Positions 14,376 to 43,739 of a stretch of 54,630 nt of DNA are shown here, piece by piece; position 1 is the stretch's first letter; every line of letters starts with the position of its first letter. The notes under the pieces are model-generated. The model was given only the letters and a program-made list of their open reading frames with translations. It did no database searches and was not told the DNA's origin. The DNA comes from Parcubacteria group bacterium CG10_big_fil_rev_8_21_14_0_10_36_14 (lineage in GTDB: Bacteria > Patescibacteriota > Patescibacteriia > GCA-002772895). Both the position numbers and the translations under genes were made by a program. The DNA is taken from assembly GCA_002772895.1 (NCBI GenBank), contig PFCS01000006.1:1-54630 (forward strand), given 5' to 3'.

Positions 14376-14450
14376 GCCGCTATCGTCTAACGGTTAGGAC
14401 GCCAGATTCTCAATCTGGCAATCGGGGTTCGATTCCCCGTAGCGGTACCA
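14376..14450 (+). tRNA. tRNA-Glu (anticodon CUC), CCA encoded
   Basis: A hand-folded cloverleaf was obtained. Acceptor gccgcta/tagcggt (G1-U72), D-arm gtct/ggac, anticodon stem ccaga/tctgg with loop ttCTCaa, T-arm cgggg-ttcgatt-ccccg. Confidence 0.9.
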
Positions 14451-36675: not shown

Positions 36676-37464
36676 CTATAATAATTTAAAATTACATACC
36701 ATATATCCGATACCCAGCGGAGCCTCAAATGAAAACATTTGTGGTTTATAATTAACTTTGTCAATAATACCCATTAACATAGCTGTTGGCAAAAGAATTG
36801 ATTCATTAGCTTCTTCGACCATTTTTTCGGGAAGAGAAAGAAGCCCAGCGGTATTTTTTGTTTCTAAAAGTTCAATAAATTTGTCATTAAATTCCTTTCC
36901 ACTTTTTGAAAATCCCAAGGGGCTTTTTTCGTTTGAGCGGTGAGATAAATTTCCAGAAACAATAATTCCTATTTTTTTATTGCTTTCGGCAAGTATTTTT
37001 TTAATAAGTCGTCCTAATTCGTAATGCGCTTTTGGGTTTTGATGAGTATGGACAAAGGGGATAACCTTTATTTTTTTGTCTTGTAAAAGATAAAAAAGAG
37101 GAATGCCAAAAGTGTAATCAAGATTTTCTTTATGGCTTAAATTGAATGGCAGATTATTATCCAAAGCGGTATGTCTTATTTTTTCTATAAGCTCAACATC
37201 AGGGCAGAGCTCCATATTGGTTTCAAATTCTCCAAACTCCTTAAAATCCATTTTATACTTTTCTGAAAGGATAATATTATAAGTAGCAGAATGCATCCGT
37301 TCGCTTGATGAAATAATAAGAAGCGAATCAATATCTAATTTTTTAAGTTTTATTTCCAGATCTTCAAAAGCCTTTTTTGTATTCGCTAGCTTTTCTATTT
37401 TATCTTTTCCAATATTTGGGATAAGTAATGGAGGGTGGGGTGTGATAGCGGCAAAGGATATCAT
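36676..37464 (-). CDS. class III extradiol dioxygenase / MEMO-like (LigB superfamily) protein
   Basis: N-terminal AAITPHPPLLIPNIG is typical of this fold. Confidence 0.6.
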   Translation of the reverse strand: MISFAAITPHPPLLIPNIGKDKIEKLANTKKAFEDLEIKLKKLDIDSLLIISSSERMHSATYNIILSEKYKMDFKEFGEFETNMELCPDVELIEKIRHTALDNNLPFNLSHKENLDYTFGIPLFYLLQDKKIKVIPFVHTHQNPKAHYELGRLIKKILAESNKKIGIIVSGNLSHRSNEKSPLGFSKSGKEFNDKFIELLETKNTAGLLSLPEKMVEEANESILLPTAMLMGIIDKVNYKPQMFSFEAPLGIGYMVCNFKLL

Positions 37465-37481
37465 GATAATTTGTCGGTTAA

Positions 37482-38891
37482 TTAATTAAAAAGTATTTGC
37501 GTTTCTGTTTTTCCTATGTTTTCACTTAGTTTGATTGGTTCGCCTATTTCATATAATCCTAATACCTTGGCGTTTGTCCATATTATATTTTCCCATTTCC
37601 ATCCGTATGTGAGAAATACATCTTCCGAAGGGATTGAACGGAGTTTTCCGTCAGAAATAAAATATACATTTGGCTCTTTTTCGTCTTTTACAAGCGAGCC
37701 GTCTAAAAATTTTATTGGTTCTGCAAGAGAATATTTATCAAGTTCCTCAAAGTTTGCTTGGATTAAATTTCGGCCAGGAAAGCGAGTATTTAAAACTGAT
37801 TTATGCCAAATTGGATATTTTTTTCCATCATAAACCCAATAAACTCCGCCGGTTTCCTTGTGTTGCAAAAGACCACCCGTAGGATATGCGCTTGCTTGGG
37901 TTATTGGAGAACCAATTGTATATGCGGAGAGATCTTCCTGTGTTATATTTTCTAATTCAAAAGGACTAAAGCCAATTGAGCGAAATACTTTTTCCGATTC
38001 AAAAGGTCGCGCTTCATCGCCGACTGTCATATATAGTTTTCCATTTTCGTCTTCCAATAACGAATAGTCGGTAAATTTTATTGGATATCCTGTTGGATAT
38101 TTTTGTAGAATACTTTCTCCTACCGGTATTACGCTTTCTTCGTTAAATTTTGACTTGAAAACCGTTTTACTTGTGAACGGACGTTTTGTTCCGTCCTGAA
38201 TAAGATAGATTCCGCCGGTTTTAGCATCTTGAAGCAAAGAGCCGTCAGGATATTGGATATTTGAAAACCATTTTGTCCAAATGAGATAAAAATTTTTATT
38301 TCCAAGATAATGCGGAGTATAGGTATAAAGCGCGGCAGTAGCATTATTTTGCGGAGTTATCCAATATTTGTAATCAACTTTTTTACTAATTCCCGGACCA
38401 AAGCCAGTATGAGTAATACCAGATTTTTGTAGATCAATAACAAATGTATTTACTATTCTGTCCACTGCATAATAAACCTGTTTTGCAAATCCGCGATATT
38501 GCGCAACAAGGGGATGAGAGAGCTCGCATTTATCACAGACCGCATAACCCATCGCCCAATCAAGTCGTCTCATATTTGCCGAAGAATATGTTATTAAGCT
38601 TTGTTCTTTCTCAAGCATCACAAGAATAAATTTTGGGTTTATTTTAAATTCTTGCGCTGTATTATAGATGATTTGCCCGGCATCCATAAACGTTCCGGTT
38701 CCAGGATAAAAATCTGCAAAATAAGATAGAAAACTATTTTTTTCTGATAAAAAATCTTTTATTTCATTTAAAGACATTGAATTACAATCAAAAAGTTCTT
38801 GATCTGAGATTACAAAGTCTTCGTTAAAGGCATAAGAGGGGAGGGGCAATATAAATAGCCCAAATATTAGAGAGATTATGACTTTTTTCAT
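37482..38891 (-). CDS. secreted protein: N-terminal cell-wall-hydrolase-like region plus four ~58-aa tandem repeats
   Basis: Signal peptide MKKVIISLIFGLFILPLPSYA and an INPKFILVMLEKEQSLI motif. Four repeats contain GGIYLIQDGTKRPF, GKLYMTVGDEARPF, GGVYWVYDGKKYPI and NVYFISDGKLRSI. Confidence 0.7.
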   Translation of the reverse strand: MKKVIISLIFGLFILPLPSYAFNEDFVISDQELFDCNSMSLNEIKDFLSEKNSFLSYFADFYPGTGTFMDAGQIIYNTAQEFKINPKFILVMLEKEQSLITYSSANMRRLDWAMGYAVCDKCELSHPLVAQYRGFAKQVYYAVDRIVNTFVIDLQKSGITHTGFGPGISKKVDYKYWITPQNNATAALYTYTPHYLGNKNFYLIWTKWFSNIQYPDGSLLQDAKTGGIYLIQDGTKRPFTSKTVFKSKFNEESVIPVGESILQKYPTGYPIKFTDYSLLEDENGKLYMTVGDEARPFESEKVFRSIGFSPFELENITQEDLSAYTIGSPITQASAYPTGGLLQHKETGGVYWVYDGKKYPIWHKSVLNTRFPGRNLIQANFEELDKYSLAEPIKFLDGSLVKDEKEPNVYFISDGKLRSIPSEDVFLTYGWKWENIIWTNAKVLGLYEIGEPIKLSENIGKTETQILFN

Positions 38892-38946
38892 ATATTAATA
38901 AGGATATCAAAATAAGTGGCAGGAAGCAACAGTTTTAATTTTTGTA

Positions 38947-38979
38947 AAAGAAAAAAGGGCTCTCTTGTGAGAGCCCTTT
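38947..38979 (-). terminator. intrinsic terminator of the GC-rich cassette
   Basis: 11-bp stem aaagggctctc/gagagcccttt with a 4-nt loop, followed by a T-run on the minus strand. Confidence 0.7.
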
Positions 38980-38988
38980 AGGTTGGGG

Positions 38989-39390
38989 TTAGCCGCCGGA
39001 AAATGGCGGAGGTGTGAGGAACATATTGAACGCCGATAGGCAGTTTTTGCCGAGGACGAACAGGTAAACCTGCCCGCATTCGGACGTGTTGTCCTTGGGG
39101 ATGGTGAGAAGGAACTGACCCGACAGATCAACCGTCTGTCCGGTGGAGCAGAGTCCCTTTCTGTCGCAGAGGGTGACGGTCATACCGTTCGGCACTCCTC
39201 CTTGCCAGCTCCAGGCGACAATCTCCTTTGGGCTGAGAGTCACCTGAAAAAGAGTGTCGTTAATTCCTGTACAGGTGGGAAGTTGAGGGATGTTGTTGTC
39301 CGCTTCGGGAAGCAACTTAATCAGGATCATCAGCTCGACGTCTTTACATCCCTCCTTTTTTACGGTGAGAAATATGGTTTCATTCTTCAC
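38989..39390 (-). CDS. GC-rich cassette ORF2: 133-aa six-Cys protein, no recognised family
   Basis: GTG start overlaps the ORF1 stop (GTGA). Coding-like, GC-rich codons. Confidence 0.6.
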   Translation of the reverse strand: MKNETIFLTVKKEGCKDVELMILIKLLPEADNNIPQLPTCTGINDTLFQVTLSPKEIVAWSWQGGVPNGMTVTLCDRKGLCSTGQTVDLSGQFLLTIPKDNTSECGQVYLFVLGKNCLSAFNMFLTPPPFSGG

Positions 39391-39812
39391 GAAGTCGCCG
39401 TCAGGTTGATGATCCAGCTACCGCCTTGATTGGCGATGGCTCTGGCAAAGGAGCTCTCGTCTGCGTTGGATGCGACGATGTTCACGTATGGCAGCACGGA
39501 CTTGGTCAGCCCGTAAACCACCAGGTTCCCCGGTGAGACCAGGACCGCGCGGATGCGTGCGGTATCAATCGCGTAGCAGGGTATGAGTGCCAGATTGGCG
39601 AGCTGTGGCTGTGGGATCGCCAGAACAGCGATCTCGGGGGGTATTGTCGGTTCGGCAGGCGTTGTGATGGTTGGCTCAGATGTCTCGTCGCCTCCACATC
39701 CGGGAAGCGCCAGGCCAAGCAAGACCAAGAGTCCTGCCGTGCACAGAGCAATCGCGAATGTGAACAAAACACGTTTTGCAAGACCGGTCCGAAATGCTTT
39801 TACCTCATTCAT
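39387..39812 (-). CDS. GC-rich cassette ORF1: probable lipoprotein (141 aa)
   Basis: AGGAGG SD. Signal peptide ending in the lipobox-like LALPGC, then the Pro/Thr-rich linker SEPTITTPAEPTIPPE. Confidence 0.65.
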   Translation of the reverse strand: MNEVKAFRTGLAKRVLFTFAIALCTAGLLVLLGLALPGCGGDETSEPTITTPAEPTIPPEIAVLAIPQPQLANLALIPCYAIDTARIRAVLVSPGNLVVYGLTKSVLPYVNIVASNADESSFARAIANQGGSWIINLTATS

Positions 39813-39858
39813 TGTTTCCTCCTGTTTTTGTGGGTTAAAGATCTACTTTCTGTCTATG

Positions 39859-39887
39859 AATATAGCACATTTTTAGTAATTTGTCAA
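39859..39887 (-). promoter_or_regulatory. consensus sigma70 promoter of the GC-rich cassette
   Basis: Minus strand reads TTGACA, 17-nt spacer, TATATT. Confidence 0.65.
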
Positions 39888-39942
39888 GAGAATTAGTAAA
39901 ATATTGCCTTATTTTACATATAATTTGTATAATTTAGGTAAT

Positions 39943-39970
39943 AAAATATGGCTATTTCCGGCCATATTTT
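39943..39970 (-). terminator. terminator after clpB
   Basis: 10-bp stem aaaatatggc/gccatatttt with an 8-nt loop. Confidence 0.5.
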
Positions 39971-39983
39971 AGAGGGGGAGTAT

Positions 39984-42596
39984 TTATTTGATAAACTTCA
40001 GTTTATCGTCATCAATACTGATTTTTATCTCATCTCCTTCTCGAAACTTTTTCTTTATGATTAGCATCGCAATCGGATCAAGTATTTCGGACTGGATTAG
40101 CCGTTTTAATGGGCGAGCGCCAAATGACGGATTATATCCCTTTTCGCATAAGTATTTTTTGGCCTCTTCGGATATTTCTAATCCGAGTCGTTTTGTAGCA
40201 AGACGTTTTTTTAGAAGTTCAATCTGTAACTCAACAATTTGCGTAAGATCTTTTTTCGAAAGCGCTTTGAAGATGATTGTTTCGTCTAAGCGGTTTAAAA
40301 ATTCTGGTTTGAATTGTTCACGCAAGAGTGAATTTATTTTTTCTTTAATTTCTTGTTCATCATTATTTTTCTTATCCGCAGTAAAACCAATATCGCCTTT
40401 TGAGGCAGCAGAAAGAATTTGATCACTTCCCAGATTTGATGTCATTATAATAACTGTGTTCTTGAAGTTTACCTTTCTTCCTTTAGCGTCTTTCATGTGT
40501 CCGTCATCTAAGATTTGCAATAAAATATTGAAAACTTCTGGATGCGCTTTTTCGATTTCATCCAATAGAATCACGGAATAAGGTCTTCGGCGTACAAGTT
40601 CGGTTAATTGTCCACCTTCTTCATGTCCGACATATCCCGGAGGAGAGCCAATCATTTTTGAAACAGAATATTTTTCCATATATTCGGACATATCAAGACG
40701 TATAATGGCAGACTCATCATTAAATAAAAATTCTGCAACCGCTTTTGCCAATTCGGTTTTACCGACGCCTGTGGGACCCAAAAAGATGAAAGAACCAATT
40801 GGTTTTTCTTCGGGTGAAATGCCGGCGCGTGAACGGCGGATAGCATTGGAGACGGCACGTACCGCTTCGTCTTGCCCGATAATTCGTCCATGCAATTTGT
40901 TTTCCATTTTTGCAAGCTTTTCCGCTTCTTCTTCAAGCATTCTGGCAACAGGAATACCTGTCCAACGGGAAACAACCCCGGCTATATCTTCCTCTGTAAT
41001 TTCTTGTTTTAAAATTCTACTGCCTTTTTGTATTGTTTTAAGCTTTTTTTCCTGATTGAATAGTTGTTTTTCAAGTTCCGGAATATTTGAGTAACGGATT
41101 TCCGCTACTTTTTGGAGGTCTCCCGCACGTTCAGAAATTTCTGCCGAAGCTCGTTTACGCTCGATTTCTTTTTTAATTTTATTAAATTCTTCAATAACTC
41201 CTTTTTCATTTTTCCATTTTAGTTCAAGTTGGTTTGCTTTTTCGCGGGTTTCTGCGATTTCGCGTTCAAGATTTTTTAGACGTTCTTTTGACTGCTCATC
41301 TTTTTCTTCTTTTAAAGCTTGTCGTTCAATTTCGAACTTCATTAGTTGGCGTTTTAGTTGATCAAGCTCAGTCGGCTGAGAATCAACTTGTAAACGCAAA
41401 GCGCTACCCGCTTCATCAATAAGATCCACTGCTTTGTCAGGTAAAAAGCGGTCGGTGATATATCTACTGGAAAGAGTTGCCGCGGAAACAATTGCCGGGT
41501 CGGTAATGCGGACTCCATGATGAACTTCGTATTTTTCTTTTATTCCGCGTAAGATTGCTATTGTGTCTGAAATAGACGGTTCCTGGACATAGACCGGCTG
41601 AAACCTGCGTTCCAGGGCTGGATCTTTTTCAATATATTTTTGATATTCTTTTAGAGTTGTCGCGCCAATTGCATGAAGTTCTCCGCGTGACAAAGCCGGT
41701 TTTAGCAAATTTGAGGCATCAATCGCACCTTCTGACGCGCCTGCTCCCACAAGAGTATGGAGCTCGTCAATAAAAAGGATTATTTTCCCGGAAGATTTTT
41801 CTATTTCTTTTACAACTGCTTTTAGACGGTCTTCAAATTCTCCGCGAAATTTTGTTCCGGCAATAAGTGAACCCAAATCAAGTGAAATAAGCTCTTTATT
41901 TTTTAAAGTTTCGGGAACATCCCCAGAAACAATTCTTTGAGCAAGACCTTCGACAATAGCAGTTTTTCCGGTTCCGGCTTCGCCAATAAGAACGGGGTTA
42001 TTTTTTGTTCGGCGAGATAAAACTTGCATAAGTCGTCTTATTTCTTCATCTCTGCCAATAACAGGGTCAAGCTTTTCTTTACGGGCAAGGTCAGTTAAAT
42101 TTTTTGAGTATCGTTCCAATGCCTGATATTTTGCTTCTGGTTCAGGGTTATCAACTTTCTGATTTCCGCGAATATCAGCCAAAACCTGAAGTACGGCATC
42201 GTAAGAAACGCCGAGTCGTGAGAGAAGCTCGGAGACGTTGCTTTGTATAGAGATAAGAGCAAGAAGCAAATGTTCTGTGCTGATAAAATCATCTTTCAGA
42301 TTTTCTGCTTCTTTCTCAGCTTGATGCAGAATACGAGCCATTTGCGGGCTGACTCGCAATTCTGTCGTGGTTTCCGGCAAGCGAGGGATAAGAGATAAGA
42401 GCTTTTTTAGATTGGCATTTAAGACTTCTTGATTTATTTCCAGTTTATTAAAAATAGTCGGAACAACTCCGTCTTTTTGTTCTAAAAGAGCAATTAAAAG
42501 ATGAGCCGGTTCAATTGAGGCGTGTTTTTTATCAAAGACTATATTTTGAGCGGCCTGCAAGGCTTCTTGAGATTTTGTCGTAAATTTTTGCATCAT
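39984..42596 (-). CDS. clpB: ATP-dependent chaperone/disaggregase ClpB
   Basis: Two AAA+ modules (GEAGTGKTA and GPTGVGKTE) separated by a long coiled-coil M-domain. 870 aa. Confidence 0.95.
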
Positions 42597-42640
42597 AAGG
42601 GTAGTAATTTATGTATATAGTATTTAGGTTTCTAATCTTA

Positions 42641-42667
42641 TTAGCAGTCGGGTTGGAGGAGTGCTAA
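42641..42667. promoter_or_regulatory. CIRCE operator (HrcA binding site) upstream of clpB
   Basis: TTAGCAGTC-N9-GAGTGCTAA against the consensus TTAGCACTC-N9-GAGTGCTAA (1 mismatch), 45-70 nt upstream of the clpB ATG. Confidence 0.65.
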
Positions 42668-42700
42668 TTTATACTATAAGTTTGCCATACATTATTATAC

Positions 42701-42729
42701 TTGTCAAGCGCTGGTAAATGTGCTAAATT
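42701..42729 (+). promoter_or_regulatory. candidate promoter for pyrD-pyrC
   Basis: TTGTCA, 17-nt spacer, TAAATT. Confidence 0.45.
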
Positions 42730-42761
42730 AAGGGCAGATATTTGACAACCAGGAGGTAGCG

Positions 42762-43739
42762 ATGATTCTTCGTGGGATTGATTTTGGAAAAGTTTTGGAT
42801 GCTACCGGTGCTCGTGGATTTTTTGGAGAAGGATATTGGTATCATAAGCTTTGGTGGCCGTTTGGTTTGAATTTTGAAGGCTCTACATTTGTTGCTAAAA
42901 CAACAACTCTGGAAGCGCTTTTGGGGAATATGGATCTTGATAAAGATTATAGACCAAAAAAACTGTTTCCCGATTGTGTAAAAGTATACTCGGGAAAAGG
43001 CGTGGTGCTGAATGCTGTGGGGCTATCGGGCCCTGGCGCAGAGGTGCTTTTTGAAGCCGGAAAATGGCAAAAAAGACAAGAGCCATTTTTTATCTCATTC
43101 ATGCCGATTGCGGGGACTGTGCGCGAAAGACGCATTGAGCTTTTAGAATTTATGAAAATGCTGAAACGATATTTACCAGAGTTTCAGGCTCCAATCGGTT
43201 TGCAAATAAATTTTTCTTGCCCAAATGTTAATGTGGAATTTGATGATGAAGAATTTGTTGACGAGATACATGGCTCATTGGCTTTGGCTCGATGTTTTGT
43301 AAATATTCCGTTGATGCCAAAATTTAGTGTTATTACACCCCCGGAAATTTTAAGAGAGGTTACTGACTTTGTATCATGCGATGCTATTTGCATATCAAAC
43401 ACTATTCCTTGGGGAAAATTGCCGAATGATATTGATTGGAAAGCTATCTTTGGAACCAACGAATCTCCACTGGCAAAATACGGCGGGGGTGGACTTTCGG
43501 GAAAACCACTTTTGGCGTTAGTTGTAGATTGGATAATGAGAGCGCGGGATATAGGCATTACAAAACCAATAAATGCCGGTGGCGGAGTTCTAAGTCAACG
43601 AGACGCGGAACTTTTGTTTTATGCCGGCGCGGATTCGATTTTTTTGGGTTCTGTTGCGATGCTTGCGCCATGGAAAGTGAAAAGTATTATAGCTCATGCG
43701 CAGAAATGCGAAAAAACGGAAAGGAGTAACACCCAATGA
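42762..43739 (+). CDS. pyrD: dihydroorotate dehydrogenase-like flavoenzyme (class 1-like)
   Basis: AGGAGG SD. Motifs NAVGLSGPG, INFSCPNV, ICISNT, GGGGLSGKPL and NAGGGV. Confidence 0.7.
   Translation: MILRGIDFGKVLDATGARGFFGEGYWYHKLWWPFGLNFEGSTFVAKTTTLEALLGNMDLDKDYRPKKLFPDCVKVYSGKGVVLNAVGLSGPGAEVLFEAGKWQKRQEPFFISFMPIAGTVRERRIELLEFMKMLKRYLPEFQAPIGLQINFSCPNVNVEFDDEEFVDEIHGSLALARCFVNIPLMPKFSVITPPEILREVTDFVSCDAICISNTIPWGKLPNDIDWKAIFGTNESPLAKYGGGGLSGKPLLALVVDWIMRARDIGITKPINAGGGVLSQRDAELLFYAGADSIFLGSVAMLAPWKVKSIIAHAQKCEKTERSNTQ

Follow-up and report, generated by a model that had tools for sequence, protein, structure and literature searches.

A GC-rich island in the genome of Parcubacteria group bacterium CG10_big_fil_rev_8_21_14_0_10_36_14 (contig PFCS01000006.1) carries two overlapping minus-strand open reading frames, ORF1 and ORF2, located between clpB and a gene for a 469-aa secreted protein. 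The stretch analysed, hereafter the window, comprises 54,630 nt (54.6 kb) with a mean guanine plus cytosine (GC) content of 36.2%. Judged from their sequence, the two ORFs are a single lipoprotein gene of about 274 aa, split by a 1-nt deletion. Probably, the resident gene was displaced in situ by a xenologous, GC-rich allele which then became, recently, a pseudogene. A first-pass annotation had presented the same segment as a two-gene cassette newly acquired from a high-GC donor.

A lipoprotein gene apparently split by a frameshift

Homologues of ORF2 were sought by an exhaustive phmmer search against 1.84 billion representatives, which gave 27 hits. Most of them are giant adhesins with Big_6, Big_9, PKD or SpaA repeats, and these matches are generic similarity among beta-rich repeat modules. 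Three hits are small proteins, namely P0008 (268 aa), P0016 (235 aa) and P0017 (265 aa), and each combines a signal peptide and a Cys-Gly lipobox with two modules. The match of ORF2 is to the C-terminal part of these proteins, and it is the N-terminal part that ORF1 resembles. The earlier statement that ORF2 has no recognisable family is valid for Pfam and NCBIfam, and fails for the exhaustive HMMER search, which finds homologues.

Both ORFs are as the first-pass annotation described them (ORF1, 39812..39387; ORF2, 39390..38989, with a GTG start, a GTGA overlap and six Cys). Their interpretation as two genes, instead, is not sustained, since the homologues are single polypeptides and a 1-nt frameshift appears to split one gene. 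ORF1 contains (i) the signal peptide; (ii) the lipobox Cys39-Gly40; (iii) a Pro/Thr stalk; and (iv) the first ~60 residues of module 1, and it finishes with five out-of-frame codons followed by a stop. ORF2 contains the end of module 1 with its closing Cys, plus all of module 2, and has no export signal. The pair Cys79...Cys156 is divided between the two ORFs.

The frame of ORF2 is open for just 9 codons upstream of the GTG and, in consequence, the frame change is confined to 39417-39388. Within that zone, the most likely site of the 1-nt deletion would be the CC of AAC-C(C)T-GAC (39405/39404). One C added there gives a repaired 274-aa protein that maps to 39812..39405 plus 39408..38992. Residues 11-256 of this protein are collinear with P0017 1-248, from signal peptide to C-terminus (E 6e-15), and the alignment of residues 75-260 with P0016 46-228 passes straight over the junction (E 1e-17), where the repaired GGSWIINPDGDFVKNETIFLTVKKEGC pairs with QGSFYIVMPNDNVVRGDKMFVTVNGVSC of P0016. 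Taken alone, the mature part of ORF1 matches P0016 residues 38-102 (z = 6.6, 0/1000 shuffles) and the first 30 residues of ORF2 match the next segment, 110-137 (z = 3.2); once joined, module 1 gives a contiguous match with P0016 38-124 (z = 11.3).

As expected of a frameshift pseudogene, ORF1 and ORF2 correspond to successive parts of a single protein of the relatives, and collinearity returns once a single base is repaired. What is ORF2 in the window is internal to one ORF in all relatives, which speaks against a separate gene. The GTG of ORF2 lies within the ancestral reading frame, at a position that is Val in two of three homologues, and no Shine-Dalgarno (SD) sequence is present 5-10 nt upstream. 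The apparent start is thus best taken as a Val codon of the ancestral frame, and the TGA as merely the first stop of the shifted frame, for which reason the GTGA overlap would be incidental. Inspection of 39417-39388 revealed no slippery heptamer of the X-XXY-YYZ type.

The frameshifted sequence reads the same in 11 contigs, which derive from at least seven samples. Most likely, the gene is a recent pseudogene, fixed in the sampled population; its recent age is suggested by the absence of further lesions, a GC content at third codon positions (GC3) that has not been ameliorated, and the absence of single-nucleotide polymorphisms (SNPs). Function would have been lost through the truncation of module 1 and a remainder without signal.

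On one contig (L002 4027-4521; ENA ERZ27293412 k141_1219170), ORF2 was not called as a gene despite DNA identical to the window; gene callers, then, disagree on the second half of the split gene.

Foreign composition in an ancestral slot

The abrupt jump in GC that had been reported from a hand count is confirmed by windowed computation. In 824-nt sliding windows across the window, mean GC is 0.362 (standard deviation, sd, 0.034) and the maximum, 0.555, falls at the island, ~5.7 sd out; the island is the sole region above 45% GC anywhere in the window. The hand count for 39001-39840, 458 G+C in 840 nt (54.5%), becomes 455/840 (54.2%) on recount, a correction that leaves the GC-rich block itself in place, and the 37.5% given for 38401-38640 is matched exactly. 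A two-change-point maximum-likelihood fit yields 55.7% GC inside 38957-39791 vs 32.4% outside, with support intervals of 2 log-likelihood units for the island edges at 38950-38973 and 39748-39807. The island had been said to coincide exactly with the ORF pair; its 5' edge, however, falls within ORF1's first ~20 codons (39748-39807) and not at the promoter, which is outside the island. A much weaker rise in GC (47-49%) occurs at 40700-41000 inside clpB, in the half that encodes the C-terminal ATPase.

Codon usage, a comparison that the first-pass annotation had proposed, is foreign in both ORFs. The GC3 of ORF1/ORF2 is 0.641/0.657 vs 0.296 +/- 0.035 in 26 native genes (i.e., 0.64-0.66 vs 0.30), and the synonymous-codon log-likelihood is -0.25/-0.29 vs +0.139 +/- 0.036 in native genes, which places them ~10 sd away from the latter. 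In the called frames of both ORFs, GC3 exceeds GC at first codon positions (GC1), which in turn exceeds GC at second positions (GC2), and this pattern is that of a coding gene shaped in a GC-richer genome. Along ORF1, GC3 changes after codon 15 (0.27 before, 0.68 after; P = 0.06, not significant), which is only suggestive of a 5' recombination junction within the signal peptide. AT-rich 5' codons are common for unrelated reasons.

The ORF pair had been regarded as a novel insert between clpB and the secreted-protein gene, a view which its conservation at this locus across the lineage was to call into question. The slot is conserved in the lineage and, to that extent, the view is contradicted: intact homologues occupy the same slot in L019, L016/17/18 and L021. 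In L019 (36.5% GC), clpB is followed, after 293 nt, by intact P0017. In L016/17/18 and L021 (about 46% GC; ClpB 70% identical), clpB is followed by 67 nt, P0008 or P0029, a 149-aa opposite-strand gene, a 474-aa homologue of the secreted protein, LigB and PriA. This gene order is the window's own; L021, with a 474-aa gene at the position of the 469-aa gene, shares six-gene synteny. In these relatives, the GC3 of the lipoprotein gene matches that of its neighbours (L019, 0.29 vs 0.27; L021, 0.54 vs 0.47-0.52). The extra 149-aa gene (L016 2006-2455; L021 2526-2975), on the opposite strand and with no Pfam hit, is absent from the window and from L011.

The last of these, L011, is the closest sibling, a metagenome-assembled genome (Patescibacteria KR13_S3.mb.1) with the order clpB, 135-bp spacer and 469-aa gene, and no lipoprotein gene. 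Its spacer (L011 7866-8000; JAHINX010000067.1) is clean, without trace of the lipoprotein gene or the leader. Since more distant relatives carry intact copies, this absence is best read as a precise loss in L011, not as a gain in the window. The simplest history is an ancestral order clpB, leader, lipoprotein, terminator and 469-aa gene, from which L011 would have later deleted leader plus gene. Scans of metagenome contigs with the P0017+P0008 alignment and with the 469-aa protein recovered no additional sibling loci.

The neighbouring genes also provide a reference for the expected divergence. ClpB is 95% identical to that of L011 over its full length and, over its C-terminal ~340 aa, the identity to the window is 94% in L011, 80% in L019 and 70% in L016, which gives the order ((window, L011), L019), L016. 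With vertical descent, the closest lipoprotein pair should be window-L019; the closest pair observed is L019-L016 (score 463; 42% identity over 256 columns), with window-L019 at 161 (33%) and window-L016 at 156. Because of this discordance with ClpB, and of a GC3 of 0.65 in a genome of GC3 0.30, the coding body is read as a xenologue. To sum the case up, a homologue occupies the same slot in relatives, the flanks are native with a foreign gene body, and the pairwise scores are discordant. The best reading of the sequence is that only the coding body would be foreign, with promoter, SD, leader and terminator native. The proposal of a horizontal origin from a GC-richer donor stands as the best explanation, both for the foreign codon usage and for a divergence beyond that predicted by ClpB.

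Predicted architecture of the protein family

The lipoproteins form a small family that had no name so far; its members have two Cys-bracketed modules and, in one Patescibacteria clade, a fixed place after clpB. The N-terminus of the window protein consists of an n-region MNEVKAFRTGLAKR (4 K/R) and a 22-residue hydrophobic stretch VLFTFAIALCTAGLLVLLGLAL, which, as read from the sequence, is the composition of a signal peptide. In the four-way alignment, Cys39-Gly40 is invariant in all four family members, and the invariant Cys are (i) the lipobox Cys39; (ii) the pair Cys79/Cys156; and (iii) the pair Cys181/Cys258, each pair bracketing one module. Between lipobox and modules lies a Pro/Thr-rich stalk (residues ~41-70), and the TPPPFSGG tail at the C-terminus is present only in the window copy. 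Modules 1 and 2 are mutually homologous (hhalign probability 94%, E 1e-7).

The two beta-rich modules, of ~80 aa each, are probably immunoglobulin-like (Ig-like), and their Cys pairs probably form a disulfide staple which closes each module, from first to last strand. Against Pfam, module 1 of P0017 matches Big_6 with 24.1 bits, below the gathering threshold of 27.6 bits. Pfam (E <= 1) and NCBIfam searches with ORF1, ORF2 and the repaired protein gave no match, a 12.8-bit 'invert_tail' line being far below cut-off. Word-indexed searches of 5.8 billion proteins with ORF1, ORF2 and the family alignment returned self hits plus P0008 only, and a PDB profile search returned only noise (a spurious enolase match at E 0.35). 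AlphaFold2 single-sequence models of the two ORFs show mostly strands, at confidence scores (pLDDT) of 32.9 and 51.2 that make them too unreliable to use.

From these features, the protein would be lipid-anchored at Cys39 after Sec-type export and may have a surface or interaction role. Small Ig-like lipoproteins usually serve surface recognition or adhesion. The first-pass annotation had favoured the locus as a candidate surface or interaction module; broken as it is, the gene has little to recommend it as a working module.

P0016, the closest homologue of the window protein, is found in a different context: in L020 (5969-8043; GCA_017973895.1, JAEMOI010003908.1) it lies after dnaG and rpoD, and L020 has no genes in common with the other loci. 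There, P0016 is flanked by two small putative lipoproteins, one of 201 aa (...AVGCGN) and one of 137 aa (...VMGCAGQ), whose genes have 53.5% and 57.7% GC, respectively, on a contig of 45% GC. This is a second cluster of GC-elevated small lipoprotein genes.

Control elements and neighbouring genes

The coordinates of the features are collected in Table 1. Promoter, SD and terminator are at the places where they had been reported (an 11/12 promoter, AGGAGG at 39823-39818, and an 11-bp stem), and the coding sequence is indeed set in a native expression context, as had been claimed. The terminator, instead, had been listed with the cassette, and an import of it does not agree with its alignment to the clpB terminator of the sibling L011. 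From the terminator hairpin onwards, window and L011 are again homologous, and they stay so over 38953..38892. The terminator is thus the native, ancestral terminator of clpB and the locus, positionally homologous to that of the sibling clpB.

Table 1. Features of the lipoprotein locus and its surroundings in the window.
Feature	Coordinates	Strand	Basis
469-aa secreted protein, conserved downstream neighbour	37482..38891	-	Homologues in relatives
Intrinsic terminator, 11-bp stem then T-run	38954..38979	-	Alignment A1 with L011 7903-7930
GC island, compositionally foreign segment	38957..39791	none	Two-change-point maximum-likelihood fit
ORF2, 133 aa, putative 3' part of same lipoprotein gene	38989..39390	-	HMMER matches, collinear alignments
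ORF1, 141 aa, putative 5' part of lipoprotein gene	39387..39812	-	ORF list, sequence reading
Zone open in both reading frames	39388..39417	-	Frame inspection
Shine-Dalgarno AGGAGG, 5 nt before ATG at 39812	39818..39823	-	Sequence reading
Sigma-70-type promoter TTGACA-17-TATATT, extended -10 TG	39859..39887	-	11/12, best in 37000-43000
AT-rich leader segment resembling L019 leader (L019 1201-1250)	39897..39947	-	Local alignment
Perfect 11-bp hairpin TAAAATATGGC / GCCATATTTTA, loop 8, directly after clpB stop	39942..39971	-	Inverted repeat I19, 100% complementary
clpB, 870 aa, conserved upstream neighbour	39984..42596	-	Pfam Clp_N, AAA, AAA_lid_9, AAA_2, ClpB_D2-small

The whole leader (39813-39983) has 28.7% GC. 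Its tabulated segment aligns with the L019 leader with a score of 34 vs 19.4 +/- 2.4 for dinucleotide shuffles, none of the 500 being as high. At the SD, the same AAAACAGGAGG also stands ahead of the L016 homologue. No similarity was found between the window leader and the empty-site spacer of L011 (z = 0.06). A 9-nt match between them, ACAAAAACA, was considered as a junction and discarded, as it is not above chance at this same z. The A/T-rich hairpin after clpB has no counterpart in the L011 spacer, where clpB runs into the downstream terminator; in the window, it may act as a clpB terminator or as an insulator ahead of the lipoprotein promoter.

The secreted protein downstream is 38-88% identical across the clade (88% in L011, 49% in L016). 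It has no Pfam or NCBIfam family, and its tblastn matches to homologues consist of overlapping segments (e.g., query 214-333 and 397-456 at shifted positions of L012), which points to internal repeats.

Proposed history and alternative explanations

The displacement that is favoured here can be described as a series of steps. In the ancestral slot, a family lipoprotein would have had a fixed expression position between clpB and the 469-aa secreted protein. The intact protein would undergo Sec-type export and be anchored by lipid at Cys39, with the Pro/Thr stalk as a spacer and the two modules displayed. A GC-rich xenologue would then have been swapped in for the resident coding sequence, from roughly 39750-39800 to ~38975, behind the native promoter; the donor would most likely be another GC-richer bacterium that carries the family. 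Afterwards, a single-base deletion in module 1 would have shifted the frame, and the outcome would be a 141-aa anchored stub (ORF1) plus a signal-less 133-aa remainder (ORF2). Both the direction and the mechanism of the exchange are deduced from these comparisons.

Several observations weigh against this history, or against parts of it. The lipobox L-P-G-C has an atypical Pro at -2 (expected, [LVI][ASTVI][GAS]-C), where P0017 has the canonical F-L-A-C, and the Ig-like fold is proposed without a Pfam or PDB match and with unusable single-sequence models. The similarity of the leader to that of L019 is moderate, as one of 406 equally AT-rich tiles of the window scores as high, and a related donor could have supplied the leader along with the gene. 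A 5' breakpoint within the signal peptide depends on a change-point with P = 0.06, and the incongruence with ClpB comes from four taxa and pairwise scores, not from a tree. No donor was found: neither the word-indexed search of 5.8 billion proteins nor the exhaustive one of 1.84 billion contains a homologue above ~36% identity. All copies belong to one near-clonal population, so that, outside these assemblies, nothing replicates the frameshift independently. Finally, ORF1 could still give an anchored fragment, and a residual anchored stub made from the strong promoter is possible.

Among the alternatives, the one closest to displacement is re-acquisition. The ancestor of window and L011 would have lost the gene, and a related Patescibacterium of higher GC would later have supplied the window lineage with the complete unit (coding sequence, promoter and leader), which went in downstream of the clpB stop and ahead of the old terminator. 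The clean empty site of L011, the dissimilarity of the window leader to its spacer and the extra post-clpB hairpin of the window are all in line with this scenario, which is nonetheless unlikely: a leader of native-like 28.7% GC would be unexpected from a donor whose GC is at least 55%, its likeness is to the leader of a low-GC relative, L019, and two events (loss, then regain at the identical site) are needed. Moreover, the repeat search at the junctions found no target-site duplication, no terminal repeats and no significant flanking direct or inverted repeats, and there are no mobility genes at the locus and no other ORF within the insert. The sole tRNA of the window is at 14376, and no paralogue was found elsewhere in the window or in the fetched loci. 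A mobile genomic island or cassette was likewise considered and set aside, as the locus has none of its marks (integrase or transposase, repeats, duplication, tRNA target). Scans of viral contigs with both ORFs and tblastn against plasmid and phage collections yielded no relatives, which leaves a mobile-element or phage origin unsupported. Vertical descent, in which the resident gene evolved fast and drifted to high GC (e.g., by relaxed constraint after the frameshift), would explain that slot, leader and architecture are common to the relatives' genes, and surface proteins do evolve fast. Nevertheless, a GC3 of 0.65 cannot arise by drift in an AT-biased genome of GC3 0.30, in which decay goes towards AT, the copies of the relatives match the GC3 of their own genomes, and the order of GC across codon positions is that of a GC-richer genome; this explanation is very improbable.

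The model of the first-pass annotation, a functional coupled operon of an anchored lipoprotein and a six-Cys partner, new from an episymbiont's high-GC host, has in its favour the GTGA stop/start overlap, the strong promoter and SD, the intact 133 codons of ORF2, the foreign composition and the absence from L011. It is, however, improbable given that the homologues are all single polypeptides, the split inside module 1 parts a conserved Cys pair, the GTG is in the ancestral frame (Val in 2/3 homologues) with no SD 5-10 nt ahead of it, ORF2 lacks an export signal though its Cys are arranged as in the exported part of the family, and the slot is ancestral in the lineage. As for the host as donor, no homologue was traced to a non-Patescibacteria host; the sole specific full-length homologues are small lipoproteins, two of whose three types are clpB-adjacent in the organism's relatives, and the suggestion finds no support. 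Hardly credible at all is that the island is a mis-joined fragment or a non-coding RNA with chance ORFs. It is true that GC-rich islands in AT-rich genomes are often RNAs and that one open frame of at least 133 codons appears in 18% of island shuffles, which makes ORF length by itself weak proof. But two collinear ORFs covering 800/835 nt appear in only 0.6% of those shuffles, GC follows a coding pattern by codon position, protein homology spans both halves, and Rfam at a permissive threshold gave only noise (best E-value 0.12, centred on the terminator). An assembly chimera is very unlikely because both junctions are crossed, at 99.9-100% identity, by 11 contigs that come from at least seven samples and from three sources (ENA k141 contigs, JGI and Logan); no SNP occurs within the island among them, and population SNPs are thus uninformative there.

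If displacement is accepted as the probable history, it corrects the tempting annotation of a 'novel two-gene interaction cassette from the host', and documents that a gene body alone was replaced, between native regulatory flanks, in a reduced candidate phyla radiation (CPR) genome, which implies that DNA from a donor of distant composition was taken up and recombined. One locus is found in four states (intact, lost, replaced and broken), a pattern typical of surface determinants under conflict, and the four states fit a dispensable determinant of this kind. A bolder idea, rather doubtful at present, is that the clpB-adjacent slot is a dedicated swap site for a surface determinant of host contact or phage contact in episymbiotic Patescibacteria. 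In that case, lineages far apart in GC content would trade alleles by taking up DNA and recombining it, the native promoter in front staying fixed, and an arms race still under way would have produced the loss in L011, the replacement in the window and the inactivation by frameshift alike. In a minority variant of this idea, the split products (anchored stub and cytoplasmic remainder) keep a function.

Relation to known systems

None of the components is new in kind: xenologous displacement, frameshift pseudogenes and Ig-like lipoproteins are all already recognised. In-situ xenologous gene displacement is a concept reportedly due to Koonin, Makarova and Omelchenko. Its role as a source of variability in surface-related families is recognised (PMC9425974). 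The window locus is like other cases in that a homologue of distant origin occupies the ancestral slot and regulatory context, with discordant composition and phylogeny and with native flanks. Unlike them, its junctions are only bracketed and no donor was found. The displaced gene, moreover, codes for a putative surface lipoprotein that is fast-evolving and non-essential and belongs to a reduced Patescibacteria genome, and the incoming copy would already be inactivated.

Regarding its own family, the window gene has the same architecture as the clpB-adjacent lipoproteins of 235-270 aa (P0017 in L019; P0008/P0029 in L016-L018 and L021; also P0016 in L020), and the same position after clpB as those of L019, L016 and L021, P0016 being elsewhere in L020. 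While the relatives' lipoproteins are intact single ORFs of native GC, the window copy is 25-36% identical to them, GC-rich and frameshifted, and has the TPPPFSGG tail. Bacterial Ig-like adhesin domains (Big_6, PF17936) share with the family the ~80-aa beta-rich module and the motif D-x-x-G-x-F ... P ... G-D/E-x-V-x-V, and the weaker matches of ORF2 fall on Big_6, PKD and Big_9 repeat arrays; in contrast to Big_6 proper, every family member stays below Pfam's gathering score, and only the lipoprotein family has the terminal Cys pair. Lastly, the locus is like split pseudogenes mis-annotated as overlapping genes, i.e., adjacent ORFs in different frames, with a 4-nt overlap, that jointly match one protein of a relative. 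It differs from the usual ones in that the pseudogene of the window is a foreign allele by composition as well, the trait by which it was noticed.

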